The translations under genes were made by a program, and so were the position numbers. Positions 1,201-60,364 of a stretch of DNA of 64,000 nt are shown in pieces; positions within the stretch are counted from its first letter, which is position 1, and every line of letters starts with the position of its first letter. The notes below the pieces were generated by a model, which had not been told where the DNA came from, did not search any database, and saw nothing but the letters and a program-made list of their open reading frames with translations. Source of the DNA: Candidatus Latescibacterota bacterium (GTDB lineage: Bacteria > Latescibacterota > CBDEFO01); the NCBI GenBank assembly GCA_965237525.1, contig CBDEFO010000004.1, positions 205,951 through 269,950 of the forward strand, written 5' to 3'.

Positions 1201-1617
1201 TCAAAGCCGATAGAGCATCCAGTATACAATTACTCCTGTGACCGAGACGTACATCCATAAGGGAAGGCAGATTCGTGCGATCCTCATGTGTCTTTCAAAC
1301 TGCTCTTTCCATGCTCGGTAGAGGGTTATTGAGGCCAGTGGAAGGATAAGGACAGCAAGGGCAATGTGTGAAATGAGAATAGTAAAGTAAACGAGTCGAA
1401 TCGAGCCGCGTCCTAAAAAGGGCACTGATCCGACATGGTAGTGATAAAAAAGATAGGAAGTCAAAAATAGCACAGAGGTCGCAAACGCCGAGAGCATAAA
1501 GACCTTATGTGCCCTTACCATCCTTCGGCGAATGAACACGTAACCTGTGGTAAGCAAGAGGGCGCTGACGCCATTTAATGTAGCGTTGACTGTGGGCAGA
1601 TCAGATATGGAGATCAA
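1201..1617 (-). CDS. DUF420 family membrane protein (cytochrome oxidase/SCO1-associated)
   Basis: 138 aa with 4 predicted TM segments. Typical DUF420 length and position immediately downstream of SCO1, overlapping it by 4 nt. Confidence 0.6.
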   Translation of the reverse strand: MISISDLPTVNATLNGVSALLLTTGYVFIRRRMVRAHKVFMLSAFATSVLFLTSYLFYHYHVGSVPFLGRGSIRLVYFTILISHIALAVLILPLASITLYRAWKEQFERHMRIARICLPLWMYVSVTGVIVYWMLYRL

Positions 1618-2273
1618 ATGGACTCCTCCTTCAGCAGGACTCCCACGTCGGTTAAGATTCGCTGATGCAATTGTGTGTCGGTGCTGTGGTAGTATCCCCG
1701 AATCTGTCCCTGTCGGTCAACGAGTGCGAATCTGAGGCTGTGGACGATGGGCGCATCCATAATATCCGGGGCGTCCGGATTCCTGTCAAAATTGTCGCCG
1801 ACGCCCAGGTGGAATCCTTCCTTGGAGAGGCGGTAGATTGCCCCTTTCTCTCCGGTTAAAAAGAGCCATTGGCCCTGCTTTGCCCGGTAGTGATCGGCGT
1901 ACGCCGATAGAACCTCGGGAGTATCCCGTTCGGGGTCGACGCTAAAGGAGACCAAAAGGACGTCGTCCGCCCTGTCCAGTGAGATCTGCAGTGCGGACAT
2001 CTGAGAGGACATCAGTGGACAGGTACCCTGGCAGTTTGTGAAGATGAAATCAGCAATCCAGATTTTGCCCTGTAAGTCCCTCAGTCCCAGCGGTCTTCCG
2101 CTCCTTTCGATCAGAGAAAACTCCGGAACACGGCCGTAGACAGGCAGTGGCTTAAGACGCCCGCTTTGGCCTTCCACAAAGCTGTTCCAGGTCCATATCG
2201 CCGCGACTGCTACCAGAACCAGTACCAGAATGCCCCACAGGAGCTGATTTCGGATTAGGTTTTCTTTTTTCAT
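1614..2273 (-). CDS. SCO1/SenC family copper chaperone (thioredoxin-like)
   Basis: N-terminal TM anchor. CQGTCP (CxxxC) copper-binding motif and a conserved His-containing segment. Thioredoxin-fold length of 219 aa. Confidence 0.8.
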   Translation of the reverse strand: MKKENLIRNQLLWGILVLVLVAVAAIWTWNSFVEGQSGRLKPLPVYGRVPEFSLIERSGRPLGLRDLQGKIWIADFIFTNCQGTCPLMSSQMSALQISLDRADDVLLVSFSVDPERDTPEVLSAYADHYRAKQGQWLFLTGEKGAIYRLSKEGFHLGVGDNFDRNPDAPDIMDAPIVHSLRFALVDRQGQIRGYYHSTDTQLHQRILTDVGVLLKEESI

Positions 2274-2389: not shown

Positions 2390-2968
2390 TCACTCCTGTG
2401 TTACCGCAGCCGGAACACCATCTGGCTCTATCTCAGCGGGAGGATGGATATCGAAGGCATCGGCGATGCGCACAAAGAGGTTGAAGAGCGCCCCATCGTA
2501 GACCGCCTCTGCGATCTGCGCGTCCGTCCATCCCACCTCACGAAGGGCCTGAACTTGTTCGTCGGTAATCCGATACGCATGCCGCGTCAAGGTGCCAACA
2601 AATTCTAGCAGAAGACGTTCCGCAGGGGTTACCGGCGCTTGGTCCAAGTCTCCGTCGCGCAGCGCCTTTGCCGTCTCGATGTATTCTTCTCCCTGCAACT
2701 GCAGGAACCACGTGTGGCTACTGAGTCAATAGTGACAGCGGTTCAGTGCCGACACGTACGAAGCGATCATCTCGTGTTGGGCACAGGTGAGCGCTCCATC
2801 CGAAAAGTGCAGGCGCGCCGCATCCGTTATCGCCGCTAAAAAGTCAGGACGTAGGCTCATCGTGTGTAAGATGTCAGGCACATGCCCGTCCTTTGATCGG
2901 GCTGCGTCGAAGAGTTCTGCAAGCTGCCCGCGAGCGTCAACATCCTCGATCCAAGCAATCCGTGGCAT
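2390..2968 (-). CDS. AhpD-like / carboxymuconolactone decarboxylase family protein with in-frame UGA (candidate selenoprotein, CxxUxxxH)
   Basis: ORFs 2726..2968 and 2390..2698 are the same frame, separated by a single TGA (plus-strand tca at 2726..2728). Read through, the sequence is ...ALNRCHY-U-LSSHTWFLQLQGEEYIE..., reproducing the AhpD catalytic CxxCxxxH motif with the second Cys replaced by UGA. An RNA hairpin UUCCUGC-AGUU-GCAGGGA sits about 20 nt downstream of the UGA. Confidence 0.6.
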
Positions 2969-3857
2969 GGTGAATATCCTCCTTTGGCTTAAAAATTTGC
3001 CTGGTGTTTTTCTTTAAAGACTTGTTGAGGCTCCTCCCAGTGGACGTTCCACCCGTGATGCGACGTTTCACCATAATCAGCGAGGTCACAAAGGTCGTCA
3101 TAGCAAAGAGGATCGTAATCGTCAAAGACAAAAAAAGTGAAGGAAGGGCTCCCGTCGGATGTCCAAGATAGAGGCAATGCCGCAAGGCGGCCATCCCATA
3201 GGTTACGGGATTTAGCCACATCACAACCTGAAGCCAAGAGGGAACTCCAGAGATTGGAAAGACCGCTCCGGAAAGGAGCCACAGTGGAATCAAAAAAAGG
3301 TTCATAATGGCGTGAAATCCGGCTGTGGAATCCATACACCATGCAATCGAAAACCCAAGACCCGTCATCCCGAAGGCGATCAGGAAGATCGTCCCCACAG
3401 TGTAGATGAAGCTTGCCGGGGTGGTGGAAATCCCCACAGTGAAGGATAATGCCAGAAAAAGGATCCCCTGAAAGAGCGCCATCGTGGCGCCTCCTGAGAT
3501 CTTCCCCAAGACGAGACTCGATCTGGAGATGGGGGAGACCAGAACGGACTGCAGAAATCCCTCCCGACGATCTTCCACGATGGAAATGGTGGAAAATATC
3601 GCCGTGAAGAGGAGGATCAAGAGGAGCGTCCCCGGATAAAAGTATTCTATGTAGGTTACATCTTCTGGCAAGGAAGACGAATGGAAGGAAGCGCCGAATC
3701 CTGATCCGATAAATATCCAGAAAAGCACCGGCTGTCCGAAAGCACCGATCATGCGATTTCGATCCCGATAAAACCTGACAAGCTCACGAACCCATAGGGT
3801 CGCGATGGGGAGCAGAAAACTTATCCGTTTGTTTTGGGTCTTATCCTCAGTAATCAT
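2937..3857 (-). CDS. ABC-2 type transporter permease
   Basis: 306 aa, 6 TM, ABC-2 family architecture. Overlaps the ATPase stop by 4 nt. Confidence 0.7.
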   Translation of the reverse strand: MITEDKTQNKRISFLLPIATLWVRELVRFYRDRNRMIGAFGQPVLFWIFIGSGFGASFHSSSLPEDVTYIEYFYPGTLLLILLFTAIFSTISIVEDRREGFLQSVLVSPISRSSLVLGKISGGATMALFQGILFLALSFTVGISTTPASFIYTVGTIFLIAFGMTGLGFSIAWCMDSTAGFHAIMNLFLIPLWLLSGAVFPISGVPSWLQVVMWLNPVTYGMAALRHCLYLGHPTGALPSLFLSLTITILFAMTTFVTSLIMVKRRITGGTSTGRSLNKSLKKNTRQIFKPKEDIHHATDCLDRGC

Positions 3858-4804
3858 GGCAAAGCAGTAACCTCTCCATCCACTTCAAAGCGGTGTCCTG
3901 TCTTTTGGATAAAGACATCCTCAAGGGTGGGTTTTCCAAAGGTTACTGATTGGATCTTCTCTTTGAAAGTGTCAAATAGCTGAGCCACAAATTGGTGCCC
4001 GTCCTGGCATTCGATCCGTATCGCGCTATTCAATATTGTGGACTCTACGCCGAATCTGCGAGAAATGTCCTCTTTAAGATCTTTCGGATCTTGGGTTTTA
4101 AGGACGATGACGTCCCCTCCGATCAATCTTTTGAGCGAATCGGGAGAATCCACTGCCGCGAGCTTGCCCTGATCTATGATCCCGATTCGGTCGCATCGTT
4201 CCGCTTCTTCGACAAAATGCGTCGTCAAAAGGACGGTGACGCTGTGTCGATCCCTCAACTCTTCAAGGTTCTTCCAAAAATTTCGTCGAGCCCCCGGATC
4301 CAATCCAGTAGACGGTTCATCAAATATGAGAAGGCCTGGTTTGTGCAGGAGTCCCTTGGCCAATTCGACTCGCCGCCGAAGCCCTCCAGACAGGTTTTCC
4401 ACAAGCTCCTCAGCACGGTCAGGTAGTCCTACAACCGTGAGGACTTCCTCCGTGCGAGACTTAAGATAGCTCCCGTAAAGGCCGTAAAGATGACCCTGGT
4501 GACGCAGGTTTTCCGTGACGGTTAATTTTCGGTCGAGGCTCGGATTTTGAAAAACGACGCCGATGCGCCTCCTTATCGCGTCGGGATTTTCAAAAATATC
4601 CAAACCGAAGATATGCACCCTCCCTTCGGTCGGACAGATGAGCGTGGAGAGAATCCTGAACAGAGTGGTCTTACCGCCTCCGTTGGGTCCAAGCAGCCCG
4701 AAGATCTCACCTTGCCCCACAGTAAAACTGATCCCACAAAGGGCTGTTCGTTCTCCGTAGTTGTGATAGAGGTCTTCAAGTTCTATGACGGATGGATCGC
4801 CCAT
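3854..4804 (-). CDS. ABC transporter ATP-binding protein
   Basis: Walker A GPNGGGKTTLFRIL, signature LSGGLRRRVELAKGL, Walker B LLIFDEPSTGLD, H-loop. First gene of an operon with the permease, AhpD-like gene, SCO1 and DUF420. Confidence 0.85.
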   Translation of the reverse strand: MGDPSVIELEDLYHNYGERTALCGISFTVGQGEIFGLLGPNGGGKTTLFRILSTLICPTEGRVHIFGLDIFENPDAIRRRIGVVFQNPSLDRKLTVTENLRHQGHLYGLYGSYLKSRTEEVLTVVGLPDRAEELVENLSGGLRRRVELAKGLLHKPGLLIFDEPSTGLDPGARRNFWKNLEELRDRHSVTVLLTTHFVEEAERCDRIGIIDQGKLAAVDSPDSLKRLIGGDVIVLKTQDPKDLKEDISRRFGVESTILNSAIRIECQDGHQFVAQLFDTFKEKIQSVTFGKPTLEDVFIQKTGHRFEVDGEVTALP

Positions 4805-5149: not shown

Positions 5150-5443
5150 TTAAAAGAGTGTGCGATGCAGGTGTGTTTCTAAGATTCCAACAATGGCCAA
5201 TAGAACAGTTAGTGGCAGGGGAACGGCAGCGATCAGGATGAGCCTGCGTCTTTCAAACTTCAAGTGCATATAGTAGAGGGCAACTAACAGTGCCTTAGTG
5301 AGAGCAAAAGCCACCAGAAACAAAGCCATGTAGAATTTGGGAATGGGTAGATACCTGGCGCCCAGCACTTCAATCACTGTAAGCACCGTAAGCCACACCC
5401 ACACGGCCATGTAATTGTCCTGCTCTTTGTGAGAATCGTTCAT
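5150..5443 (-). CDS. cytochrome c oxidase subunit IV-like small membrane protein (COX4_pro-like)
   Basis: 97 aa, 2 TM. Conserved TKALLVALYYMHLKFE motif typical of the prokaryotic caa3/aa3 subunit IV family. Confidence 0.5.
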   Translation of the reverse strand: MNDSHKEQDNYMAVWVWLTVLTVIEVLGARYLPIPKFYMALFLVAFALTKALLVALYYMHLKFERRRLILIAAVPLPLTVLLAIVGILETHLHRTLF

Positions 5444-5772
5444 GAGGCTTTCTCCTTATCAAGTTACATGGATGCAACCAGATTACCATCGGATAATTGT
5501 CGCTGAAACACATCAAGTCGATGTTTTCATCGGGGCTTTCTCTGCCCTATGCTGACCTCTCTTTGTTTAAAGTGCATGCACAACCCCCAGGGCTATCCAC
5601 TAGGATATTGCGACGAAACTGACACATAAAAGTCTGATCGTTTGCTGTATATCTCTCTGTAGTCTGTGCCATCGGAAATTCTATGTCACAACCATCCTTC
5701 TCAGCCAGTGCGTCAGAGATCAGGTAGTTTCCAAACTAGACTGGGACACTTCCACTGACACCGAGCCTCCAT

Positions 5773-6680
5773 TCACTCAGTTGGATGTCCAAGGTCCAGC
5801 CAGGATGTCAGAACGCCATCCAGGAACACTTTGCTCTGCTTGGCCGCCGAGACCGGGTCGCTTTCATAGCCGGATCCGAATACATGCGCCGCGTACTCGA
5901 CGGAAATGTACCCATCGTAATCTGTCTCCAGCATGGCATGGACCAGCCCGGCCCAGTCCACCTCGCCTTTTTCCCAGTGGCGGGAATTCAAAGTTCTGCC
6001 GGCTCCCCTTGGCATCCTTGGCGTGCATATGGACAATACGCTCGCGCAAGCGGCCAAATGCCTCGACGGCGTCGTCGCCGGCGGCCTTGTAATGGGACGG
6101 ATCGAAGTTGACGTACAAGTCCTGACGCTCAATCAGCTCAATCAACCTGCAGATCGTCGAAAGGTTCCAGACTAAAAAACCTGGAAAGACGGCGGCCTCC
6201 ATGGCGACCTTCACGCCTGGCTGGCGTATAATCGAGGCACTCGCACAGTTCCTCCACCAGCCATAGCCAGCAATGGCTCTCAGAGACCCCGTCAGGAACA
6301 ATCCCGGAAAATACATGGACGACGTCTGTCCCCAGGTCCACTGCCAGGTCGACGGCGCCCTTGACAAAATTGCAGTTCACTTCGCGCCTGTACTCGTCAG
6401 GCTCAATGAGACTGACATGGGCACTCAAGGAGGATAGAGAAAGCCCTGCTGATCGCAGGGTCTGCCTAATTTCTTCGCGCTTGCTCTGTGCAAGGTCTGG
6501 CAAGATGTGTGGCTGGAAATGTGCTGCCGTCTCCATGTTCAACTCAATAGCCTGGTAACCGATCTCTCTCAGGATCTCCGTGGTCTGCTCTATGCCGTAA
6601 TCGGTGAAACCGCTTGAATGAAAGCTTATCCCTCCCCCACGCCGCATTCCTGCATCACTCCCTTCATGTAGCAGAAGCAC
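5773..6680 (-). pseudogene. sugar phosphate isomerase/epimerase (xylose isomerase-like TIM barrel), 2 frameshifts
   Basis: Three overlapping minus ORFs (6138..6680, 5864..6367, 5773..6132) together span a TIM-barrel of AP-endonuclease-2 / xylose-isomerase-like type. GC-rich. Shifts lie at short homopolymers. Confidence 0.45.
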
Positions 6681-7484
6681 TCGTCCTGCCAGACGTCCGG
6701 ATCGATAGGATGTCCTGCATACAGTTGAGCGGTGAGGAAACCGGTGTAGCCGACCTCCTTGAGGGTCTTGACAAACATCTTCCAGTTCATCGTTCCATGC
6801 CCAGGAATGTTGTGTGCCAGCCCTATGCCCTGGCCTTCGTTGTCGCTGAAGTGGACATAGTACAAATACGGCGCGACCTTTCGGACGGCGTCGGTGATGT
6901 TGACATCGGTGATGTTCTGGTCTGCGGTATCAATCATCAGCCTGCAGCCCGCCATGTGGATCTCACGCATCATTCTGATGGTATCGTCCAGGGTAACAAC
7001 GACCCGAGATTCCGAGGGCGTGAGCGTGTGCAGACACAGGGTCACTCAGGGAGGCGTGTTCTGCGACCTCTTTCATCCCCTCCCGGGGGTTCCAGGCCCA
7101 GGCCTGCTCGAAGTCGGTGTCGCTTATCATGTGACCGCTGATGACATTGATGCGAGGACAGCCGACTTGTGCCGCCACGTCCACACACTTCTTGTAGTAA
7201 TCGACGGTGTCGCGCCGGACCCACTCCTTAGAATACGAGAAGTTGTACTCCCGCGCCAGAGCCCCACCGACCACCGACAGCGCGGTGATCTCCAACCCCT
7301 GGTCTTCCACCAGCTTGCCAATTTCCTCGCGATCCCCGCGGTCACACACGACATCCAGGTGCGGACCATATGCCCAGATATCCACCCCCTGAAAGCCGGT
7401 CTTGGCAATCCGGCGTATAGCTTCCTCCAGCGTCGTGTAGTCCAGGTAGATCATCGTACAGGAAGATAGTTTCATTGCGATCAT
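6626..7484 (-). pseudogene. sugar phosphate isomerase/epimerase (xylose isomerase-like TIM barrel), 1 frameshift
   Basis: ORFs 6963..7484 (N-terminal part) and 6626..7045 (C-terminal part, LCLHTL...SDNEG motifs) overlap in different frames. Tandem paralog of the preceding gene. Confidence 0.45.
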
Positions 7485-7622
7485 CCCCTTAACATGCGAT
7501 CAGAATACCTCTACTGACAAGCAAAACCAGCTAACTCGACATCTTCGCCGTCCCAAGAGGAGCTGCCGCTTCATTGCCCCTCTCGAGCACTTACTTCGAG
7601 CTTACGCAGTCTCTCTTCAGAG

Positions 7623-8078
7623 TTATTTCAGTTCTACAAGAATAGCGCATCCTTCGCTGGAGCCAAGATTCTCTGTGGCGTGCTCCACCGCGTCTGCGAA
7701 AATTGCCTCGCCCGCTTTCAACTCAACTTCTGCGGTTCCCCCATCAGGTAAGGTGAAGTTGTACTTGCCATCGCTTATGCCAATGGCAACGAGAGCTGGG
7801 TGCGAATGCATATCTGTCTTTTGACCGGGCTTCATCCGACTTTCTAGCACCCGCACCCGATCGTCTCCAGTATAACCTTGTAGACATGCGGTGCCGCAGC
7901 CGTTGCATCTCTTGCCATTTTGCTCTTCCTTTATTCCTTTATAATGAACAGAGACCATCTCGGATAACGTTTGCCACCATACGAAGTTATGCATAACGAA
8001 GTAGAGCAGAATCCGAGAAAGCAAAGTGCAATAAGCCTTTCGTATAGTGCTGTTAGGTGCGCCGAGCGGAGGGGTCAC
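7623..8078 (-). CDS. cupin domain protein
   Basis: C-terminal 100 aa has a cupin beta-barrel signature (HSHPALVAIGISDGKYNF...GEAIFADAVEHATEN). The true start is probably an internal Met near 7955. Confidence 0.5.
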   Translation of the reverse strand: MTPPLGAPNSTIRKAYCTLLSRILLYFVMHNFVWWQTLSEMVSVHYKGIKEEQNGKRCNGCGTACLQGYTGDDRVRVLESRMKPGQKTDMHSHPALVAIGISDGKYNFTLPDGGTAEVELKAGEAIFADAVEHATENLGSSEGCAILVELK

Positions 8079-8080
8079 AT

Positions 8081-8359
8081 TCAGCTTTTTTTCAATCTAT
8101 AGAGTTGTGGTTTTGTCTTTGGTATTCTTTCTATAGTATTTCTTGCTTCGAGATCAAGTTTAATAACCTCTACATACCAAGATATCGAACCTTCGAATCC
8201 ATCCTTTAGGTTCTTTTCAACAGCTTTTGATAATGAAGCAAAAGTTAATTCTTTCGATTTTAAGGTTTCGACTATTGATTCTCGGATAACTTTATACTTC
8301 GCTTTGCTGATATTCACTCCCTTCTTTCCTTCAGGATGTTGAGTTAAAATTCTTTCCAT
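8081..8359 (-). CDS. hypothetical protein (92 aa)
   Basis: Clean ORF with ATG start, preceded by structured leader element E1. Confidence 0.4.
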   Translation of the reverse strand: MERILTQHPEGKKGVNISKAKYKVIRESIVETLKSKELTFASLSKAVEKNLKDGFEGSISWYVEVIKLDLEARNTIERIPKTKPQLYRLKKS

Positions 8360-8947: not shown

Positions 8948-9556
8948 TCATATCAAATAGACGATAGTAAAGAGTATAATCCAGACAAGATCCACAAAGT
9001 GCCAGTACAGCCCAATTATCTCAACGCCGGTGTGATCTTCTTGTGAATAGCCGCCGCGGAACGCCTTTACCGTGACAAAGATCATGCAAAGGACTCCTAT
9101 AGTCACGTGGGCGCCGTGGAAGCCCGTCAAGGTGAAGAAACAGGCCCCGAAAAGGGTGCCGCTGACAACAAGCCCCCCGTGGATTAATTCACTGTATTCG
9201 TACGCCTGTACGCTCAAGAACAACGCCCCCAGGATCACGGTTCCCACAAGGTATTTCTTGAGCCCTCTTTGATCATCGTTCCCAATTGCCGCAAACGCCT
9301 TTACCATGGTCACACTGCTGCAGATCAGGATAAAGGTGTTAAGAGCAGTAAGCGGCACGTTAAGGATATCACCGGGGGTTGCCCAAAGGGGACTGTCGGG
9401 CCAGCTAAGGCTTCCGAACCGGAGCACAATATAAGATCCGATCAAACCCGTAAAAAACATGACCTCCGAGCCGAGAAATACCCACATCCCTAACTTCTTG
9501 GTCTCCAGACCGAGGCTCGTCTCAGAGGGAGGTGGCAACGGTATTGCTTCTGCCAT
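8948..9556 (-). CDS. ctaE: cytochrome c oxidase subunit III
   Basis: 202 aa, 5 TM. Typical subunit III motifs (FHGAHVTIG, WHFVDLVWI). Confidence 0.85.
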   Translation of the reverse strand: MAEAIPLPPPSETSLGLETKKLGMWVFLGSEVMFFTGLIGSYIVLRFGSLSWPDSPLWATPGDILNVPLTALNTFILICSSVTMVKAFAAIGNDDQRGLKKYLVGTVILGALFLSVQAYEYSELIHGGLVVSGTLFGACFFTLTGFHGAHVTIGVLCMIFVTVKAFRGGYSQEDHTGVEIIGLYWHFVDLVWIILFTIVYLI

Positions 9557-9580: not shown

Positions 9581-10576
9581 TCACGATAAAGGAACCTTGT
9601 CAAATATCATAACTGTCAACAATAGGGGAAGATAGATCAGTGAAGCTAACATAAGCATTCGGGCATACGCCTCGGTTCTGAAGAGGGCAAAACACAGGCT
9701 GCATCCTAAAAGTAAGAGACTCAGACAGAGTGCCACAAAGAAGTAGAGCACACCTACCATACCCAGAAAGGCAGGGATTAGGCTGAAAGACATCAGGACA
9801 AGACTATAAAGGGCGGCCTGTCGCCCCGTGCTTTTTCCATCAGGATCAAAAAAAGGCAGCATCTTGCAGCCAGCTTTTGCATAATCGTCCCTGTAGATCC
9901 AGGCGATTGAGAGGAAATGAGGAAATTGCCAAAAGAAGAGGATCAAAAAGAGCATCCAAGCCTCAGAATTGATCTGGCCCCTTGCTGCTGCCCAACCCCC
10001 TATGGAGGGAATCGACCCTGGAATTGCCCCTATCAGTGTATTCAAGGACGTCTTTCTTTTCAGAGGAGTGTACAAGAACAGATAGCTCGAGATGGTGACT
10101 ACAGAAAGCAAGCTGGTGGTAAGATTGACCAGAATGGCAAGGTATATAACCCCTGTGACAGATAGGCCAACGCCGAAGCGCAGGGCGTCCTCCGGGTCCA
10201 ATCGCCCAGATGGAAGAGGACGATCTTTCGTTCGCTGCATCTGTGAATCGAACTCGCGCTCAAGGAACTGGTTCAATGCAGCGGCTCCTCCTGCTACCAA
10301 TGCCGCCCCAGCAAGCGCGTGGAGCAGAAGAAAGATGTCAAGGGCACCTGTGGACCCGAGATAGAATCCAGACAGAGTGGTCAAAAGAACAAACGACGTA
10401 ATCCGGGGTTTTACAAGCTGAAGGTAATCCGATATTTTCTTGAGGACATCGTCGGATAGTCTAAATTCCCCTCTTGCAGCTAAAGAAACATTGGAGTTTC
10501 TTAGGCTTGGGACGCTATCTTTGCCCAAAGGACCGTCTGATGATAGATCGAGAGTATATGTATCCTCTTTCTGCAT
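9581..10576 (-). CDS. ctaB: protoheme IX farnesyltransferase (heme O synthase)
   Basis: UbiA-family polyprenyltransferase with an N-terminal extension. CyoE/CtaB motifs (DRPLPSGRL, WQFPHF). Confidence 0.8.
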   Translation of the reverse strand: MQKEDTYTLDLSSDGPLGKDSVPSLRNSNVSLAARGEFRLSDDVLKKISDYLQLVKPRITSFVLLTTLSGFYLGSTGALDIFLLLHALAGAALVAGGAAALNQFLEREFDSQMQRTKDRPLPSGRLDPEDALRFGVGLSVTGVIYLAILVNLTTSLLSVVTISSYLFLYTPLKRKTSLNTLIGAIPGSIPSIGGWAAARGQINSEAWMLFLILFFWQFPHFLSIAWIYRDDYAKAGCKMLPFFDPDGKSTGRQAALYSLVLMSFSLIPAFLGMVGVLYFFVALCLSLLLLGCSLCFALFRTEAYARMLMLASLIYLPLLLTVMIFDKVPLS

Positions 10577-10578
10577 CT

Positions 10579-11580
10579 TTACCGCGTCTCCAAGGTTCTC
10601 TCAGGAATGCCCAGCATCTGGTAGGATCTTAGCGTAAGGGTCAGGCTTGAGGCCAAAACGAGGGCGCCGACTCCTACGTGGGCAGTCGTCAGATAGACCT
10701 CTTTGGCCGTCCAGATGACGAACGCCCCAAGGAGGATCTGAATGACCAAAAGCCCCGCCATAAGGAGTGATGGAACTAAAAGTCTGACTTGATCTTTATA
10801 GTCCCTGATGATCTTTGTTACTGTCCACAGGCCTCCTATCGTCACGACCCCCGCTCCTACCCTATGGGCAAAGTGGATGAGGATTCCTGTCCGGTATTCG
10901 TCTAAAAGGGAGAAGATCGGAGGAACCAGGCGGCCGAAAGAAAGGGGAAAGTCAGGAATAGCAAGTCCTGATCCTGTGTGTCGCACAAGGGCACCCAACA
11001 AAAGCTGAAGATAGATAAATGCGGTAGTTGTAAGAGAAAGGGATCGTAAGGAGGGAATGCCTCTATCTTCAAGTTTATTCGGACAATTAGGACCGCTCGC
11101 ACCACGCTTCCATTCGGATGAAGTGAAAAGAGCCAGGCTGACGGTGATACCAAAGAAGGCCTGAGCCAAGCAGGCGTGAGTCACCGAGATGAAAGTCGGG
11201 AGTCGGTAGATAACAGTTAACCCTCCCAGGACTCCCTGAACAACGATAGTTGCCAGCGCTCCCATTCCCAGCGAGCGAACCCACCGGCGGGGTTCCTTGA
11301 ACCATAGCCAAAAAGAAAGGATCACCGTCAAAAAACCTACAGACATAGCGATCATGCGATGTCCATGTTCATAAAATATCCCTCCGACCATGGGAGGGAA
11401 GAGCGTACCATACGAAAGCGGCCAATCAGGCACTGAGAGGCCGGAGCCGGTGCTGGTGACCAGACCGCCTGCGATGATCAGAACGAACGTCCCCGCCGCT
11501 GTTAGCACGGCGAACCGATGGAGCCACAGATTATCCCTTGACCTGCTCACTTCAAGTGTGTTTCTACTTTCCACCATCGC
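10579..11580 (-). CDS. ctaA: heme A synthase (COX15/CtaA)
   Basis: 8 TM, paired His motifs (HRMIAMSVG, HFAHRVGAG). The ORF track starts at 11814, but that reading overlaps ctaD. The likely start is MVESRN at about 11580. Confidence 0.7.
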   Translation of the reverse strand, partial: AMVESRNTLEVSRSRDNLWLHRFAVLTAAGTFVLIIAGGLVTSTGSGLSVPDWPLSYGTLFPPMVGGIFYEHGHRMIAMSVGFLTVILSFWLWFKEPRRWVRSLGMGALATIVVQGVLGGLTVIYRLPTFISVTHACLAQAFFGITVSLALFTSSEWKRGASGPNCPNKLEDRGIPSLRSLSLTTTAFIYLQLLLGALVRHTGSGLAIPDFPLSFGRLVPPIFSLLDEYRTGILIHFAHRVGAGVVTIGGLWTVTKIIRDYKDQVRLLVPSLLMAGLLVIQILLGAFVIWTAKEVYLTTAHVGVGALVLASSLTLTLRSYQMLGIPERTLETR

Positions 11581-13375
11581 CCCCTGCGGGGACCTCTTCA
11601 AGATTGCGGGATTGAAGCAGCCAATCTTCCTGGACCTGGGGTGAACTGTACTCGTGTGGACCCCGATAGACCGTAGGGATCGTATCAAAGTTCCCGTGCC
11701 CCGGAGGAGAGGGACAGATCCATTCGAGCGTGTTCGCCCGCCAAGGGTTCTTGTCCGACACCTTCCCTCTGTAAAGAGAGTAGAAGAAGTTGATAAAGAA
11801 GGGGATTTGAGCAAATCCGAGCACGATGCTGCTGATCGTCATAAAGACATTTAACGGTTGAAGGGGCTGGAGGAATTCGTAAAAAGTGGGGTCGTATATT
11901 CTTCGCATCATTCCGCCGGCTCCCGCCATGTGCATTGGGAAGAAGACGCCATTCATACTGATGAAGGTCAACCAGAAGTGTACTTTACCCCAGCGTTCGT
12001 TCATCAAGCGTCCGAATATCTTGGGAAACCAGAAGTAGATTCCGGCGAAGATCGCCATCACGCTTCCCGTGAAGACGACATAGTGGATATGGGCGACGAT
12101 GAAGTAGGTATCGTGAATGAAGATGTCAACCGGCGTGGATGCCATAAAGATACCGCTTAAGCCGCCGATGATGAAGTGGGCTACAAACGCTATGGCAAAG
12201 CACATCGGTGTAGTAAACCAAATGGATGCGCCCCAAAGCGTTCCGAGCCAATTGAACGTCTTGACGGACGACGGAACGGCGATTACCATGGTGGAGATCA
12301 TAAAGGTCGTGCCCAAGACAGGGTTCATCCCGCTCTGGAACATGTGATGTCCCCAGACGATGAAGCCCAAACCCGCGATCGAAATCAAAGAGAAGACCAT
12401 CGCCTTATACCCGAAGATGGGCTTGCGGGCAAAGGTCGAGATTATGTCCGAGACTATGCCCATAGCCGGCAGAATCATAATATAGACCGCAGGGTGGGAG
12501 TAGAACCAGAATACATGCTGAAATAGGAGCGGTTGTCCTCCTGCGCCCTTCTCCAGCAGCGTTCCCCCAATCATAAGACCTTTCGGCAGGAAGAAGCTGG
12601 TTCCGAGGACCCGATCAAAAAACAACATTATCACGCCAGCGGTCAAGACGGGCGTTGCTAAGACCTGGAGAATTGCCGTTATAAAGAGAGACCAGATCGA
12701 AAGAGGAAGGCGCAGCATCGACATCCCAGGCGCCCTCAAATTTAGGATGGTCGTGACATAGTTCATCCCTCCTACTACGGACGACATCCCCACCAGACCG
12801 ATGCCTATGAGCCACAAGTTCGTTCCGTTGCCTGGCAGTGTAGCAGCAAGGGGAGGATATGTTGTCCAGCCGGCGCCGGCTGGCCCTCCTTCTGCCCAGA
12901 AGCTGGAAAATACGATGATCGCCGCAGGCCAGAACAACCAGTAGGAGATGGCGTTGAGTGTGGGAAACGCCATATCACGGTAGCCGATCTGCAGGGGAAT
13001 CAGGAAGTTTGCAAAAAAACCAGCCAGAAGAGGGATAATCACAAAAAAGATCATAATGGTGGCGTGCATTGTGAAGAGGTTGTTATAACCCTCCGGCAGG
13101 AGAATGTACTGCGTCTGGCCGGTCTCTTCGTTTACGCTTGTCTGGACGATGCTGTCCGGAAGCAGATATCCGAAGGGCATACTTTCTCCTGGATAGGCAA
13201 GCTGCCAGCGAACACCCAAAGCTAATAGACCGCCCACAACGAAGAAAAATAGGCTGGTAAAGAGGAACTGCTTGGCTATAACCTTGTGATCGGTGGACCA
13301 GATATATTTTCTAATGAAGCTCAGTTTGTGATGAACATCGTGGCCGGCCATCTCAGCGCCCTTATTATCGTTCAT
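11564..13375 (-). CDS. ctaD: cytochrome c oxidase subunit I
   Basis: 603 aa, 12+ TM. Heme/Cu ligands in canonical context (WFFGHPEVY-like HPAVYIMILP, HHMF). C-terminal soluble extension. Confidence 0.9.
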   Translation of the reverse strand: MNDNKGAEMAGHDVHHKLSFIRKYIWSTDHKVIAKQFLFTSLFFFVVGGLLALGVRWQLAYPGESMPFGYLLPDSIVQTSVNEETGQTQYILLPEGYNNLFTMHATIMIFFVIIPLLAGFFANFLIPLQIGYRDMAFPTLNAISYWLFWPAAIIVFSSFWAEGGPAGAGWTTYPPLAATLPGNGTNLWLIGIGLVGMSSVVGGMNYVTTILNLRAPGMSMLRLPLSIWSLFITAILQVLATPVLTAGVIMLFFDRVLGTSFFLPKGLMIGGTLLEKGAGGQPLLFQHVFWFYSHPAVYIMILPAMGIVSDIISTFARKPIFGYKAMVFSLISIAGLGFIVWGHHMFQSGMNPVLGTTFMISTMVIAVPSSVKTFNWLGTLWGASIWFTTPMCFAIAFVAHFIIGGLSGIFMASTPVDIFIHDTYFIVAHIHYVVFTGSVMAIFAGIYFWFPKIFGRLMNERWGKVHFWLTFISMNGVFFPMHMAGAGGMMRRIYDPTFYEFLQPLQPLNVFMTISSIVLGFAQIPFFINFFYSLYRGKVSDKNPWRANTLEWICPSPPGHGNFDTIPTVYRGPHEYSSPQVQEDWLLQSRNLEEVPAGGDGGK

Positions 13376-13478: not shown

Positions 13479-14324
13479 TTAATAATAATATTCCTCTTCA
13501 TCCAGTTTTTCCTCAAGTAATTCGTCGAGCCATGTCTGAAATTCTTCGGGTGTCTGGACAGTTATGAAACCTCTCATTCTGTAGTGCCCAAGACCACAAA
13601 GCTCGGCGCAGGCGATCTCCCAAGTTCCAGTTTGGGTCGCCACCACCCAGACGTTGGGAGAAATCATCCCCGGGAGAACATCGTGCTTGATGCGGAAGTG
13701 AGGCAGAAAGAAGCTGTGGATGACATCTTTGGACTGCAAAAGGAAGCGAACGTTTCGGTTGGCAGGAATATGGAGAATGTTAATCGTTGTCAGATCGTCC
13801 GCAGAGACAGGGTCGCTCCCGTCAATTCCGAGCGGGTTGTCGGAGGTTATCAGTTTTGGATCGCGTCTGGCGAACTTCCCATCCGGCCCAGAGTATCTAA
13901 AGTTCCAAGCGAATTGCTCCGCAACAACTTCTATGTCGAACGTATCTTCGGGAATATCATAGCGAAGATCTGACCAGATCGTGTTACTGTAGATCGCCAA
14001 ACCGATAAAAAAGATTGTCGGGACTATAGTCCAGACGAATTCAAGACGGGTATTACCGCGAGAATAGACGGCTCTGCGGCCCTCCCGACGGCGATAACGG
14101 ATCATAAAGTAAATCAGGAGACCCTCAGTGATTAGGAACACAAAGCCTGTAACCCCGAGGATAAAAAAGTACAAAGAGTCGATCTTGGAACCGTGGAGCG
14201 AGACATCTTCCGGAAAACTCCAGCTAAATAACCGAGAATCAATGGCAAACGCAGGGGCAGATCCTGAGGAGAGGATCGCAAGGACTGTCAAGATTAGCAA
14301 CTTAATCAAAGTACGCAGATTCAT
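13479..14324 (-). CDS. ctaC: cytochrome c oxidase subunit II (CuA, no fused heme c domain)
   Basis: Signal peptide plus 2 TM. CuA site H..CAELCGLGHYRM. Acidic C-terminus. Confidence 0.9.
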   Translation of the reverse strand: MNLRTLIKLLILTVLAILSSGSAPAFAIDSRLFSWSFPEDVSLHGSKIDSLYFFILGVTGFVFLITEGLLIYFMIRYRRREGRRAVYSRGNTRLEFVWTIVPTIFFIGLAIYSNTIWSDLRYDIPEDTFDIEVVAEQFAWNFRYSGPDGKFARRDPKLITSDNPLGIDGSDPVSADDLTTINILHIPANRNVRFLLQSKDVIHSFFLPHFRIKHDVLPGMISPNVWVVATQTGTWEIACAELCGLGHYRMRGFITVQTPEEFQTWLDELLEEKLDEEEYYY

Positions 14325-24983: not shown

Positions 24984-25109
24984 AGATACTCAAAGTTCCC
25001 TTTAGCGTCTAAATCAGAGCAATAAAAGATAACAACTACTATATCTCTTGTCAAGCCTCTTAGCCAAAATTTTTTTGGAAAATTTTCTGGAATAATGAAT
25101 TGACTTTAG

Positions 25110-26629
25110 AAGCCTTGTGAAAAACCCTTAGATTCAGAAAGTAGTATAGAACAAGCATTGATAAAGCAGCTCCGATGTATTATATTATGTTATTGATAAT
25201 ATTATACATGGAGGAAACAATGACCCCACAAAAGCAGGAACAGACAAATCCGGTGTTTCACTATTTTCAGATGGAGGATTTAGTTCCCGAGGATCATATC
25301 CTTCGTCAGATTGATGAGGCAGTTGATTTTTCATTTGTACGAGACGTTGTATCAGATTGTTATTGCCCTGACAATGGCAGACCCGGTATTGATCCTGAAT
25401 TAGTTGTTCGAATGATCCTTATTGGCTATCTGTATAATTTGAGTGAGAATCGGCTCTGTCAGGAAGTGGGGATGCATGCGGCATATCGGTTGTTTTGTCA
25501 TCAGACATTTGATGATGCGGTTCCGGATAGGAGCACGATCAACAAGCTTCGCAATCACAAGTGGGCATCCAGTGGGTTGTTTGAACGGATAATGCGTCAG
25601 GTAGTCCAGTGTTGTATAGATGTCGGTGTTGTGAGCGGTAAACACCTTAGTGTCGACGGCACTCAGATACAAGCTGATGCTTCAGTGAAAAGTATTGAGC
25701 CGATAGAACCCCCTTTTTCTCTTGATGATTATCTCAAGGGAATCGGTTTTGAAGGTGATAAGACAAAGGGTAGGTCCCGGGCATCCTCAGGATAAAGACT
25801 TTCATGGTGAAAAGTGGACGAACCAAACACACCGTTCGACTACAGACCCCGACGCGCGCTTATACAGCAAATCGAAGGGCAAAGGGGCTTTTCTCTCGTT
25901 TATGGGCCATGATCTGATCGACACAAAAAGCAGAGTAATCCTTGAGACTCAGGGCACGCAGGCGACAGGGACAGCAGAGCCCGAAAGTGCCCTTAAGATG
26001 GTAGATGACCTTGAAACATACACCATGCCCAAAGACATTCAGACACTTAGTGCCGATACCGGTTACGGTTCTGGTAATTTTATCGCTGATGTACTTGACC
26101 GGGGAATCATACCCCATATTCCTCTGCGAGCCGATGAGAAGATTGAACCGATTCCTACATGGAAAAACAAGACAAATTCAGCACATATTCAGGCCGAACG
26201 GGATAGAAAAGTGCGAGAGGCGAAAGCCAGAAATCATGCACGGTCTATCTCATTAACAGCTGACTACAAACTCTCCCGGAGACTCCGTAAACGCAGTGAA
26301 CATATCTTTGCTGAAGCCAGGCAACAACACGGTATGGGACGAGCCCGTTACAGAGAACTAGCCTCACTGAATGAACAGTTGAATCTTGTTGCAACAGTAC
26401 AGAATCTCAAGAGGCTTGTATCTTTCATAAGAAGGGGGAAAGCGTCTATGTGTGCCCTGTCTGTCAAAGACAGTGCATCCTGTTCTTCAAACAGCTCCTA
26501 TTCCTTGCTGACCAGAACTCTGATAAGACTATTTTGCTTATTCCACAGCAAAACGATACGATATGCTACTCTTTGACCCATAATCGGCGCTTCAGACGCT
26601 GCCTGGGACATAACTATTTCACAAGGCTT
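25110..26629 (+). mobile_element. IS copy A (1520 bp; IS5/IS1182-like DUF772+DDE transposase, +1 frameshift), TSD TTAG
   Basis: Terminal IR AAGCCTTGTGAAA / TTTCACAAGGCTT. Flanking 4 bp direct repeat ttag (25106..25109 and 26630..26633). Transposase split into ORFs 25175..25795 and 25722..26576 by an extra C near 25780. Confidence 0.85.
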
Positions 26630-27149
26630 TTAGTGAATAGATCTTCCTTAGTCTCTATGTCATTTTTCTTTGCAATGAGCAAAGTGGCTGGCAAATCCGT
26701 GGTCAGCGTAGTACCTTGCATTTTCAAATAGTTCATCACCTCTCTATACAAGTTTATGACCTTTAGCTCGGAGTATTGTTCTTCCGCCAGATTTACCATC
26801 TTTTCCCTGGCCGACCCTGACAAAACCCAAGCGACCTTCTCTAAACCTACGGGAATGTTTCTGTTTTTTTCCAGCTCAAGCCACTTTACCATTTCATCCA
26901 AAATAGCCTCATAGTCCTCATGCACTTCAACTTCACCTGAACTGTCAAAGGAAGTGTTCCATTTGTTAGCCTTAGCGTAGAGTCGAGCTAGAACTGTTCC
27001 CATAGAGTCTTCCCCAGCACAGACCAATAACTTAATACTTTTCTCGGGGCCGGCCGACTTAAAAAAGAGGCCGATTTTCCCCACATCTTGCGAGAGTCTG
27101 AATATGGACCCTATGATCTTATACTTTTCCTCTTCCTTCTCCTCTCTAA

Positions 27150-28668: not shown

Positions 28669-29419
28669 CTAAGTATACTTGGAGCCAAGAAGATAGGAAG
28701 CTCTGCTATGAGAGGAACATCGTCCTTAGCGAGCTCTTTTTTTATTTGGCCAAGATCAATGGCTATAGGCTCGGCTGTGAGCCTGATATCTTGTTTAAGA
28801 GACACAATTAAGGACTTGTACTCCTCCTTTAAGACCTTCAGATAGAGGAATTTTAATTCCTGGTTATTCATCATTATTGCTCCTTTAACCTGTCTTTAAC
28901 CTGTGGTCCCCTCTATAACTACTTTGGGTGTTACTGCTTCTCTATAATAAAGTATGACAAGCTTGTCTGCAAGCATTATTTAATGGTTAAAGAAATAGTA
29001 AGGTCTGGAAGGTGATTAAGAGATTAGAGCTATCTCAGGCTGTTAATCTTAATCAGAAAAGTACCCTGAGGAATATTCCTCCTAAGAATAACTAAGCTTC
29101 TATTTTTAATGTTCTTGTGCTTATTCATCATTTACAAACCTCTTGCTCTTAGATATCTTTTAGTTACGTAACTTTTCGTTATCCCATAGCACAACGGTGG
29201 TTGGCTGGTGTCTCTGCTGTAAGATCGTTCTGGCAAATGCCGGTCCCGGGGAACAGCCCGAACTGGATGATGGACTGTGTCGAGAAGATGTGCCGGAGAA
29301 CTTGGGCGAGGAATAAAGGGGATAAAAAAAGGTCGAAATATAATCCCTAATGAATGTGATATGGGGAATGTCGGTTTCTAACTAAAACGGTGAAGTTGAA
29401 TGAAAGGAGGTTGAAAAAG

Positions 29420-57124: not shown

Positions 57125-57150
57125 CTAAACTGGAAGGCAAATAAGAAATA

Positions 57151-57394: not shown

Positions 57395-60364
57395 ATGAGC
57401 GTCGGAGGCGCAACACAAATGCTATGGAGAGTTGAAGTCAGCATAAGGCCGGGCTTTTTTGATTCCCAGGGCGAAGGCATAAAGAAGGGAATAGAGGATC
57501 TCGGCATTCTTGCTGTCACATCTTGCTCGACATCGCAAGTATATTATATACAGGGGGAAATACCAAAAGAGGATGTCGCCCTCATCTCCCGGAGACTACT
57601 GATGGACAGTGTGACCCAGGATTACTCGATCAGCCTGCTTTGTGGTTTGCTGCCTCCTCTCCCGAACAAAGCGCCCACGGCGCCGAGCCGCGATATCCGC
57701 ACTGTGGAGGTGGCGTACAACCCCGGGGTCATGGACCCTGTAGAGGCGAGTGTTAAAAGGGGTATAGAGGACCTCGGAGTCGGGGGAGTTTCTGCCCTTA
57801 AGACGGCCGTGAAATACGTTATAAGGGGTAAGATCACAGATTCCCAGTTGATAACCATCAGGGACAATCTGCTCCTGAACGATATTATACAGCACCAGGC
57901 CGGAAGTTCTGAGTCTCCCTTTGTTGATCCTCCCTGCTACAGATTCGAGCCGGTCTATGTCCAGGTATTGGGCGCACACGACGACAATCTAAATGAGATC
58001 AGTCGGACAGGGCAGCTCTCTTTGAACCTGGACGAGATGCGGGCGATAAGGAACCACTTTACATATCTGGGCAGAAATCCTACGGACGCTGAACTTGAGA
58101 CTATAGCTCAAACGTGGTCGGAGCACTGTGTGCATAAGACTTTCAAGGGCATTATAGAATATGAGGGAGAGAGGATCGATAATCTTCTCAAGAGCACTAT
58201 AATGAAGGTCACAGAGGAGCTTGATAAGGACTGGTGCGTTTCCGTCTTCGAGGACAACGCCGGGATTGTCAAATTCGATGAAAACTATAACCTGTGTTTC
58301 AAGGTTGAGACTCACAATCATCCGTCGGCTTTAGAGCCCTACGGAGGGGCCGGGACGGGAACAGGGGGAGCAATAAGAGACCCGCTCGGCACCGGGCTGG
58401 GGGCAAAGCCCATCATAAACACGGACGTCTTCTGCTTCGGCCCGCTGGATCTGCCGTACGATAAGCTCCCGTCCGGATGTCTGCATCCCAAACGGGTCTT
58501 CAAGGGCGTCGTAGCGGGCGTGGGGGATTACGGCAACAGGATGGGTATTCCGACTGTCAACGGAGCTATATATTTTGACGAAGGCTACATAGGCAATCCA
58601 CTGGTCTATTGCGGAAATGTGGGCATCCTCCCAGTGGACAAGTCGTTCAAAAAGCTCAAAGATGGAGACTATATCGTCCTGGTCGGGGGCCGCACGGGGA
58701 GAGACGGGATTCACGGCGTCACGTTCTCCTCAGACGCCCTGACGGATAGTCTCTCCAGCGGGGTCGTGCAGATCGGAAACGCCATAACCGAAAAGAAGAT
58801 GGTAGATGTGATTATGGAAGCCAGAGACCTGGATCTCTACAGTTCGATCACTGACTGCGGAGGAGGTGGACTCTCCTCTGCGGTCGGCGAGATGGGGGTG
58901 GAGATAGGGGCCGAGGTAGATCTGGATAGAGTCCCGCTCAAATATGAAGGCCTCAGCTACACGGAGATATGGATCTCGGAGTCGCAGGAGCGGATGATAT
59001 TAGCTGTGCCTCCTCAAAATGTGCAAGAACTGATACAGCTCTGCGCTGAGGAGGACGTGGAGGCAACGGTCATAGGGAAATTTACGGGCGACAAGAGGCT
59101 CAAGCTGCGCTATGAGAGAAATGTCGTATGCGACCTGGATATGAACTTTCTGCACAACGGCCTCCCGAGATTGAATCTGAAGGCGACATGGGATAAGCCC
59201 TATTTCGAAGAGCCTGATCTCCCTGATCCATCGGATTTAACCCCTATTCTGAAGTCCATATTGTCATCTCCCAACGTATGCAGCAAAGAATGGGTGATAA
59301 GACAGTACGACCACGAGGTTCAGGGGGGCAGCGTGCTTAAACCTCTTCAGGGCGTAAGGAACGACGGGCCGGGAGATGCCTCTGTCACAAGGCCAGTTAT
59401 GAATTCTACAAAGGGCATCGTTCTATCTGTCGGTCTGAATCCAAAATATGGGAAGATAGACCCCTATCACATGGCGGCATCCGCCATTGACGAGGCACTG
59501 AGACAGGTAATATCGGTCGGAGGGACTTTGGAGCATACAGCCCTTCTGGATAACTTCTGCTGGGGGAGTCCCTATGAACCCGAGGGGCTCGGGGGGCTTG
59601 TCAGAGCAGCTAAGGCCTGCTACGACATAGCCAGGGTATATGAGACCCCCTTTATCTCCGGCAAGGACAGCTTGAACAACGAGTTTGTCGTACGTGGAAA
59701 GAGTGTTCCTATTCCCCCGGCTCTTTTGATCTCTGCTATATCTGTTGTAGACGACGTCCAGAAAGTCATCTCGATGGATTTTAAAGAGCCGGGCAACCTG
59801 ATCTACGTCGTGGGCACGACTTACGATGAACTCGGGGCTTCACACTTCTACGATCTTAACGGCTATACCGGCAACAACTGCCCCGTTGTCCGCCCTTCTG
59901 AGGGGAAAAGGACGATGGACGCCCTGAGCGCAGCCTCCTCTGAGAGGCTCATAAGGGCCTGTCACGATTGCAGCGAAGGGGGTATAGGAGTTGCCGTATC
60001 CGAGATGTGCTTTTCAGGGGAAGTAGGAGCTTCCATTTCACTTGCCGAAGTTCCCACGTCACACGACAATGCAGGGGCAGGCCCACGCGTCTACCCGATA
60101 GAAAGAAACGACACGATCCTCTTTTCGGAGTCCAACTCGCGCTTTATCGTAGAGGTAGCCCTCGAGAATAGAGGCAGATTTGAAGAGATTCTAAAGGATG
60201 TGGCTTTTGGAGTCATAGGTAAGACCACAGCCGACACAGAACTGGTCATAACGCGGCTTCTGGCCATAACGGGACTTAATGAGGCAGAAGTCGTACGGGC
60301 AGTCGTACGGGCAGATATATTTGAACTGAAGGAGGCCTGGCAATCGCCCTTACGGGATATTTAA
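57395..60364 (+). CDS. purL: phosphoribosylformylglycinamidine synthase, PurS-PurS-PurL fusion (FGAM synthase II type)
   Basis: 989 aa. Two N-terminal PurS-like domains, then the small-PurL AIRS/AIRS_C domains (HNHPSALEPYGGAGTG, GKDSLNNE). 12 bp tandem duplication at 60290..60313 (VVRAVVRA). The stop codon lies inside the TSD of IS copy E. Confidence 0.85.
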   Translation: MSVGGATQMLWRVEVSIRPGFFDSQGEGIKKGIEDLGILAVTSCSTSQVYYIQGEIPKEDVALISRRLLMDSVTQDYSISLLCGLLPPLPNKAPTAPSRDIRTVEVAYNPGVMDPVEASVKRGIEDLGVGGVSALKTAVKYVIRGKITDSQLITIRDNLLLNDIIQHQAGSSESPFVDPPCYRFEPVYVQVLGAHDDNLNEISRTGQLSLNLDEMRAIRNHFTYLGRNPTDAELETIAQTWSEHCVHKTFKGIIEYEGERIDNLLKSTIMKVTEELDKDWCVSVFEDNAGIVKFDENYNLCFKVETHNHPSALEPYGGAGTGTGGAIRDPLGTGLGAKPIINTDVFCFGPLDLPYDKLPSGCLHPKRVFKGVVAGVGDYGNRMGIPTVNGAIYFDEGYIGNPLVYCGNVGILPVDKSFKKLKDGDYIVLVGGRTGRDGIHGVTFSSDALTDSLSSGVVQIGNAITEKKMVDVIMEARDLDLYSSITDCGGGGLSSAVGEMGVEIGAEVDLDRVPLKYEGLSYTEIWISESQERMILAVPPQNVQELIQLCAEEDVEATVIGKFTGDKRLKLRYERNVVCDLDMNFLHNGLPRLNLKATWDKPYFEEPDLPDPSDLTPILKSILSSPNVCSKEWVIRQYDHEVQGGSVLKPLQGVRNDGPGDASVTRPVMNSTKGIVLSVGLNPKYGKIDPYHMAASAIDEALRQVISVGGTLEHTALLDNFCWGSPYEPEGLGGLVRAAKACYDIARVYETPFISGKDSLNNEFVVRGKSVPIPPALLISAISVVDDVQKVISMDFKEPGNLIYVVGTTYDELGASHFYDLNGYTGNNCPVVRPSEGKRTMDALSAASSERLIRACHDCSEGGIGVAVSEMCFSGEVGASISLAEVPTSHDNAGAGPRVYPIERNDTILFSESNSRFIVEVALENRGRFEEILKDVAFGVIGKTTADTELVITRLLAITGLNEAEVVRAVVRADIFELKEAWQSPLRDI

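Follow-up and report, generated by a model that had tools for sequence, protein, structure and literature searches.

A 64,000-nucleotide stretch of DNA from a Candidatus Latescibacterota bacterium (the window) carries on its minus strand two small neighbouring open reading frames (ORFs) that are very probably a single gene, encoding an AhpD-like enzyme in which the key Cys is replaced by selenocysteine (Sec). From 2968 to 2390, this strand reads as one frame of 192 codons plus stop, with a TGA at codon 81 (2728..2726) as the sole interruption (Table 1). The ORF listing cuts the frame into an 80-residue ORF (2726..2968) and a 102-residue ORF (2390..2698), and the 192-codon frame confirms what a first-pass annotation of the window, made from the letters alone, had claimed: two adjacent ORFs that are one frame broken only by this TGA. 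Around it, the translation runs N-R-C78-H79-Y80-(UGA)81-L-S-S-H85. TGA ends 14 of the 39 long ORFs in the window (G+C 49%) and so functions there as an ordinary stop, which rules out a reassigned genetic code. A scan of the 64 kb for other ORFs interrupted by TGA alone yielded no convincing second selenoprotein gene.

Table 1. Features of the predicted selenoprotein gene and of its surroundings, in window positions.
Feature	Position	Strand	Remarks
Predicted AhpD-like selenoprotein gene, complete	2390..2968	-	ATG 2968..2966, Sec codon 81, true stop TGA 2392..2390
In-frame UGA, very probably read as Sec (U81)	2726..2728	-	aligned with the invariant Cys of full-length homologues
Active-site motif C78-H-Y-U81-L-S-S-H85	2714..2737	-	residue numbering of the translated frame
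Glu66, fifth residue of the predicted proton relay	2771..2773	-	spacing equal to PA0269
Shine-Dalgarno sequence AAGGAGG	2978..2984	-	9 nt 5′ of the ATG; direct reading of the sequence
Predicted SECIS hairpin UUCCUGC-AGUU-GCAGGGA	2690..2707	-	7 bp in the window sequence; begins 18 nt after the A of the UGA
Conserved hairpin core UCCUGC-AGUU-GCAGGG	2691..2706	-	6 bp; 19 nt 3′ of the UGA; loop AGUU at 2697..2700
ABC-2 permease, upstream neighbour	2937..3857	-	Pfam ABC2_membrane 1e-33; last 32 nt overlap the start of the selenoprotein gene
ABC transporter ATPase	3854..4804	-	Pfam ABC_tran 2e-32
SCO1/SenC copper chaperone, downstream neighbour	1614..2273	-	Pfam SCO1-SenC 8e-25; 116 nt past the selenoprotein stop
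DUF420 membrane protein	1201..1617	-	Pfam DUF420 4e-42; 4-nt overlap with the SCO1 gene
COX2	13479..14324	-	aa3-type cytochrome c oxidase cluster
COX1	11564..13375	-	aa3-type cytochrome c oxidase cluster
Haem A synthase-like (CtaA) ORF	between COX1 and CtaB/UbiA in gene order	-	aa3-type cytochrome c oxidase cluster
CtaB/UbiA	9581..10576	-	aa3-type cytochrome c oxidase cluster
COX3	8948..9556	-	aa3-type cytochrome c oxidase cluster
COX4	5150..5443	-	aa3-type cytochrome c oxidase cluster

What do related genes carry at this codon? A search of 5.8 billion proteins gave two classes of homologues: full-length proteins of ~190 residues at 48–75% identity, and ~100 proteins of ~105 residues at 75–88% identity that cover the C-terminal half only. 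Alignment with Cys-containing homologues, suggested as a check in the first-pass annotation, placed a Cys at the UGA column in every full-length homologue, and thereby supports its proposal of an AhpD/CMD-type CxxCxxxH pattern whose second Cys is replaced. Since the UGA column is always Cys while Thr or Asn can take the place of the first motif Cys, the Sec position is that of the indispensable residue. Among Sec forms, the first Cys is kept in all 79. The contigs that encode the short C-terminal proteins contain an 82-residue ORF that ends in TGA 12–21 nucleotides (nt) upstream and in frame, and translation through this TGA yields C-H-Y-(stop)-L-S-S-H. The short database proteins are gene-calling artefacts, left by callers that halted at the TGA. 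The ~100 closest entries (within P0028–P0120; loci L001–L009) comprise 105–110 residues and are annotated as 'alkylhydroperoxidase family enzyme' or as hypothetical; U is present in no database entry of this clade, whose Sec forms seem to be split into two ORFs by systematic mis-annotation.

A genome scan that used one genome per species (GTDB) returned the 80 closest loci, in which codon 81 is TGA in 78 and TGC in two, both from Pseudonocardiaceae. Carriers come from at least eight phyla and are labelled as Chloroflexota (many classes), Dormibacterota, Acidobacteriota, Latescibacterota, Verrucomicrobiia, Eisenbacteria, Actinomycetes/Acidimicrobiia, Clostridia, Thermodesulfobacteriota and Proteobacteria. 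The nearest relative, locus L010, lies on a Candidatus Latescibacterota chromosome (OZ252149.1) that is syntenic with the window and ~97% identical in DNA, and its protein is 97% identical to that of the window. This orthologue keeps both TGA and hairpin, and differs by eight synonymous and four non-synonymous changes over the two halves of the gene. These comparisons speak to the simplest alternative, namely that a TGC or TGT was mutated or mis-read to TGA in a pseudogene or through a sequencing error, so that only an 80-residue fragment is made. The contig name hints at low coverage ("4.72x") and two nearby TIM-barrel genes are frameshift-split, both of which would fit such an accident. However, 78 of the 80 independent species genomes share this TGA, as do many metagenome contigs, both halves of the gene retain 65–97% amino-acid identity, and the 97%-identical sister differs mostly synonymously on both sides of the TGA. 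Judged by this conservation, the accident is effectively refuted, and we rate its probability as negligible.

The codons that follow the UGA argue in the same direction. The first (+1) is CTG, CTC, CTA or TTA, and hence Leu in every case. The second encodes Ser in all but three of 79 sequences and is written either as AGT/AGC or as TCC/TCA/TCG; this switching between Ser codon families indicates that selection acts on the amino acid. At +4 every sequence has His, written freely as CAT or CAC, and Trp+6 is found in 77 of 79. A second alternative, two separate genes, would have an 80-residue protein end at the UGA and a ~102-residue protein initiate independently. Every gene caller annotates ORFs of 80–82 and 102–108 residues in keeping with it, and the TTG at 2698 is a possible start. 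Yet the 7–10 codons that separate the UGA from the putative restarts are under purifying selection at the codon level, the His85 of the catalytic motif would stay untranslated, and full-length Cys homologues are single polypeptides. Moreover, the restart codons picked by gene callers vary in position and identity among genomes (one of the Leu codons at +8 and +10, or GTG at +5). The stretch from the UGA to any possible restart thus evolves, by all comparative signs, as translated sequence, which shows that the UGA is translated through. Codons that behave as translated, together with the varying restarts, therefore exclude the pseudogene as well as the two-gene scenario, the latter being in our estimate extremely improbable.

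Is there a signal that could direct Sec to this UGA? Just downstream of it lies a candidate Sec insertion sequence (SECIS) element. RNAalifold, applied to 58 distinct sequences, gave one structure, a 6-base-pair (bp) stem (columns 32–37 with 42–47) closed by a 4-nt loop; the seventh pair of the window's own stem is a standard pair in only 14 of the 58. The distance between hairpin and UGA is constant, with zero indels in any Sec-form sequence. Pair 34–45 (2704 and 2693 in the window) is C-G in 48 of the distinct sequences, U-A in 10 and broken in none. This change is doubly synonymous and compensatory, as codon Leu+8 alternates at its first base (CTG/TTG) and codon Gln+11 at its third (CAG/CAA), and the U-A form is found amid quite different flanks (Anaerolineae-type Chloroflexota, L034, L048, L053 and L072). 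The loop sequence is AGUU (GGUC in L082), with a conserved G-U. A guanosine in the loop is a common feature of bacterial SECIS loops (PMC1088965), and the hairpin of the window has it.

Since the hairpin lies within coding sequence that specifies F-L-Q-L-Q-G, it might be a mere by-product of this conserved peptide and have no RNA function. The W-F-L-Q-L-Q-G peptide is indeed conserved, partly also in Cys homologues, and there is hardly any variation in six of the seven pairs. Against this, synonymous sites are frozen only inside the hairpin: Leu+10 is written as TTG in 79 of 79 Leu codons, whereas TTG makes up 9.8% of the Leu codons in the remainder of these genes; CTC, at 33% in that remainder, never occurs at Leu+8; and all 79 Gln codons at Gln+9 read CAG. 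The sole variable pair has changed on both sides together, ten times, and is never broken. In addition, Cys homologues with the same F-L-Q-L-Q-G amino acids use stem-breaking codons—TTT TTA CAG CTG CAA in L091 and TTC CTC CAG CTA CAA in L092—so that the stem is impossible in both. We consider a peptide by-product highly improbable; the codon pattern indicates that the hairpin is under selection at the RNA level and identifies it as a predicted bacterial SECIS element. The description in the first-pass annotation, a 7-bp stem with an AGUU loop about 20 nt 3′ of the UGA, was accurate (the distance is 18 nt), and the covariation and frozen codons add support for its SECIS reading.

The closest Cys forms (L090, L067 and L078) retain a decaying copy of the hairpin. 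The TGC-bearing relatives L067 (635..) and L078 (1009..), both Pseudonocardiaceae metagenome-assembled genomes (MAGs), and L090 are nested among Sec forms, and most of the hairpin is still present in them (TTCCTGCAGTCGCAGGGC, TTCCTGCAGTTGCACGGC and CATCTGCAGTTGCAGGGT, respectively). A decaying hairpin in the closest Cys forms is what would be expected after a recent replacement of Sec by Cys, and the three loci look like recent Sec-to-Cys reversions that carry a fossil SECIS.

Several observations weigh against a Sec-encoding gene. tRNA-Sec was not found in the 64-kb window by ARAGORN or at Rfam gathering thresholds, the sole tRNA there being tRNA-Asp, and neither Pfam searches of the 59 window ORFs nor tblastn with the E. 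coli proteins recovered SelA, SelB or SelD. Rfam searched at E <= 10 over 2600..2800 has no family that matches the hairpin, which is unsurprising as short bacterial SECIS elements sit within coding sequence. The folding energy is unexceptional in the single sequence (a 101-nt stretch scored z = +0.54 against shuffles); single-sequence folding is uninformative here, and the case therefore rests on the comparison with other genomes. The stem is short (6–7 bp), and just one pair covaries with the remainder invariant. Lastly, the name of the source contig, ctg479145_4.72x_l (ENA metagenome ERZ26167216), suggests ~4.7x coverage, which together with the frameshifts in nearby genes weakens any single-sequence argument, a worry removed by the comparative data.

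The search for Sec machinery was extended to the related loci. ARAGORN on 84 of them with 10-kb flanks found ordinary tRNAs only, and a tblastn search of the window and all loci (1.32 Mb) with the three E. coli proteins produced only GTPase-domain matches, in L023, L033, L048 and L026. The match in L033, the sole one translated, reads as translation initiation factor IF-2 rather than SelB. Likewise, the AIRS-domain protein at 57395..60364 on the plus strand, considered as a SelD candidate, is instead a PurS/PurL FGAM synthase: in this 989-residue ORF, PurS is joined to the FGAR-AT linker and to AIRS/AIRS_C domains of PurL type. Literature on selenocysteine in Latescibacteria and the BSepDB supplements offered nothing usable.

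The UGA might be recoded to something other than Sec, either to Cys by a tRNASec-like tRNACys that works with SelB and the same hairpin, or to Trp or Cys through near-cognate read-through. In 2016, Mukai et al. reportedly described insertion of Cys at UGA by tRNASec-like tRNACys in a few bacteria; Cys-recoding tRNAs of this type are rare. The window yielded none of the Sec machinery, and a hairpin alone cannot reveal the amino acid that SelB brings. However, the family is catalogued as Sec and has hundreds of members from communities that use Sec (PMC2398784, PMC13188914), and to maintain a costly UGA plus SECIS in 78 genomes for the sake of Cys would be unparsimonious where a TGC suffices, as in L067 and L078. 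Recoding to a non-Sec residue is thus very unlikely. With Sec at codon 81 as the preferred reading, the gene marks its Latescibacterota-like source organism as a probable selenocysteine user.

Which enzyme does the gene encode? Profile searches were run with U81 entered as Cys. The NCBIfam model TIGR01926 ("peroxidase-related enzyme") matches with 88.6 bits against a curated cutoff of 81.8, over protein residues 7–176 and model positions 6–175 of 178, and Pfam CMD matches at 5e-11. The nearest PDB entries are the "uncharacterized peroxidase-related protein" structures 3c1l, 2prr, 2oyo and 2pfx as well as AhpD 6k40, with E-values of 1e-16 to 7e-14; they align over residues 11–180 (the 1e-16 match over residues 19–179) and place their C-x-x-C opposite C78/U81. 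Three related assignments were rejected. Canonical AhpD (TIGR00777) scored 18.3 bits against a cutoff of 192. NF041238 (AhpD_rel_CFYUT), the "hypothetical protein 1" of the Sargasso Sea and likewise a CxxU selenoprotein with a distant AhpD-type domain, scored 62.3 bits against 175, its match limited to the C-terminal half of the model (positions 151–333 of ~357). For gamma-carboxymuconolactone decarboxylase proper, the Pfam CMD match reflects a shared helical domain; true enzymes of this kind are devoid of the CxxC motif and the proton-relay residues (PMC3141380), whereas the window protein has both a CxxU motif and the relay residues. No AhpC/peroxiredoxin domain was detected by Pfam among the 59 window ORFs.

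The relay comprises Glu36, Cys48, Tyr50, Cys51 and His55 in P. aeruginosa PA0269, and Glu118, Cys130, His132, Cys133 and His137 in M. tuberculosis AhpD (PMC3141380). The sequence of the window protein reproduces its spacing (Glu66-x11-Cys78-x-Tyr80-Sec81-x3-His85) and, judged by sequence, shares with these two members of the AhpD-like structural family both the two-helix catalytic motif and the relay spacing, except that they carry Cys at the second position where the window protein is predicted to have Sec. This second Cys of M. tuberculosis AhpD (Cys133) was reportedly identified by Koshkin et al. in 2003 as the attacking nucleophile, which fits both the occurrence of Sec at that very position and the fact that no other position of the motif Cys pair is invariant in the Cys homologues. 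The protein lacks a hydrophobic segment (maximum 19-residue hydropathy 0.98) and a signal peptide. It is probably a soluble, cytoplasmic AhpD-like thiol/selenol oxidoreductase (TIGR01926/COG2128).

Together, these features suggest how the gene might be expressed and its product might work. With UGA81 in the ribosomal A site, the downstream hairpin would recruit SelB-GTP-Sec-tRNASec, as in the established bacterial pathway, and Sec would be inserted in place of release-factor termination; the true stop, a UGA without a hairpin, would terminate translation. In the folded enzyme, a U81 selenolate of low pKa may be positioned by a Glu66/Tyr80/His85 relay and a structural water, as in AhpD. By family precedent, U81 would then attack an oxidised substrate, either a peroxide or a partner peroxiredoxin in its sulfenic acid or disulfide form, Cys78 would resolve the adduct as an intramolecular selenenyl-sulfide, and a cellular thiol reductant would regenerate the enzyme. 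SelB dependence, selenium content, substrate and reductant are all presumed here from analogous systems.

The gene sits in a co-directional series in the order COX2, COX1, CtaA, CtaB, COX3, COX4, ABC ATPase, ABC-2 permease, selenoprotein, SCO1 and DUF420. Pfam matches, all on the minus strand, corroborate the ABC-transporter/SCO1/DUF420 context described in the first-pass annotation. The 116-nt gap between the selenoprotein gene and SCO1 is free of terminator-like sites and contains one weak promoter-like match. Co-transcription of the selenoprotein gene with SCO1 and DUF420 is plausible because the genes are co-directional, overlapping or tightly spaced, with no terminator-like site between them.

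The first-pass annotation had gone further and proposed a redox partnership with SCO1, which the comparative data do not sustain. The SCO1/DUF420/ABC neighbourhood is found only in the window and in its 97%-identical sister L010, and in none of the 79 other genomes that carry the gene. Neither tblastn of the window neighbours against all loci nor clustering of the flanking ORFs at 82 loci revealed a partner gene conserved beyond single clades. SCO1 has an N-terminal hydrophobic anchor (hydropathy 2.44), so that the redox centres of this membrane-anchored protein and of the soluble selenoprotein should lie on opposite sides of the membrane, and the selenoprotein is therefore unlikely to engage the extracytoplasmic SCO1 copper site in direct thiol/selenol exchange. 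Could the selenoprotein nonetheless have been recruited into biogenesis of the aa3-type oxidase, as a cytoplasmic selenol reductant or peroxide guard coupled to the delivery of copper or haem? If true, this would be the first functional assignment in this selenoprotein family. The idea is weakened by the restriction of the arrangement to two close genomes of 81 and by the apparent location of the protein across the membrane from the SCO1 copper site, and we consider it unlikely. A looser link is possible, such as peroxide defence co-expressed with aerobic respiration, or a cytoplasmic step of oxidase maturation.

Elsewhere in the window, a segment of ~2.4 kb (5716–8172) is missing from the sister L010 (OZ252149.1), where the flanks join directly. 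It holds two xylose-isomerase-like TIM-barrel genes and a cupin gene (7623–8078); both TIM-barrel genes are frameshift-split (6138–6680 / 5773–6132 and 6963–7484 / 6626–7045) and represent either decaying genes or indel errors. An insertion sequence (IS) of ~1.53 kb that encodes a 466-residue transposase (Pfam DUF772 and DDE_Tnp_1) is present in five copies, 99% identical, at ~25105–26636, 27140–28678, 47697–49230, 55600–57134 and 60357–61887. The copies at 25–28.7 kb lie in tandem with broken transposase ORFs. Five such near-identical copies suggest a recent IS expansion, or else an assembly artefact of a low-coverage contig. Direct repeats of ~1.08 kb, 62–84% identical, at 44700–47200 and 49226–49525 correspond to tandem paralogous ORFs (44844–45836, 46160–46924 and 47001–47717) that have no clear Pfam assignment, apart from a weak NHL-repeat match in one ORF of the family.

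AhpD-like selenoproteins with a CxxU motif are not new. They were first reported in 2005 from the Sargasso Sea by Zhang, Fomenko and Gladyshev, with 27 sequences in COG2128 (PMC1088965); in the Global Ocean Sampling (GOS) selenoproteome, "AhpD-like 1, COG2128, CxxU" ranked fourth with 299 sequences (PMC2398784); they occur in sequenced Clostridia (PMC1794560); and reviews from 2022 and 2026 list an "AhpD-like protein, COG2128/TIGR01926, CxxU" (PMC9312934, PMC13188914). BSepDB has a browsing page for the family, and reports ~13% of SECIS elements as non-canonical. The statement in the first-pass annotation that such proteins are known from metagenomes is therefore correct (PMC1088965, PMC2398784, PMC13188914). 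For biology at large, a further member of one of the commonest bacterial selenoprotein families, catalogued since 2005, carries little weight. Of more consequence is that the gene and its ~100 closest database relatives are wrongly annotated as two small hypothetical ORFs, so that the active site has been lost from protein databases.

How does the window gene compare with these known systems? With the published AhpD-like family (COG2128 YciW / TIGR01926), it shares the hidden Markov model (HMM), a CxxU motif with Sec in second position, a SECIS-like hairpin that immediately follows the UGA and has a small loop containing G, and widespread Cys homologues; the assignment was made through the TIGR01926 HMM and the motif. 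In every sequence feature by which the known AhpD-like CxxU family is recognized, the gene agrees with it and is, on that basis, a previously mis-annotated member. Yet the published sets are mainly marine, whereas the clade of the window consists mostly of MAGs from soil, groundwater and sediment (Chloroflexota, Dormibacterota, Acidobacteriota), and a position beside SCO1/DUF420 in a cytochrome oxidase cluster has not been reported for this selenoprotein family. A few points are mildly new: the host belongs to Latescibacterota, the Sec form dominates among phyla of soil and sediment, the SECIS is minimal and very clean, and in this lineage specifically the gene has been placed in a cytochrome oxidase biogenesis operon. 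The hairpin is reminiscent of the SECIS of E. coli fdhF, in that it lies in coding sequence just 3′ of the UGA and has a small apical loop with G-U, which in the relative L082 even reads GGUC. In contrast, its stem is shorter and a bulged U is not evident, and the fdhF hairpin starts nearer the UGA than the 19 nt of the window gene. With its 6-bp stem, AGUU loop, one covarying pair and apparently recent reversions that carry a fossil hairpin, the soil and sediment clade provides an unusually clean natural experiment on a minimal SECIS.

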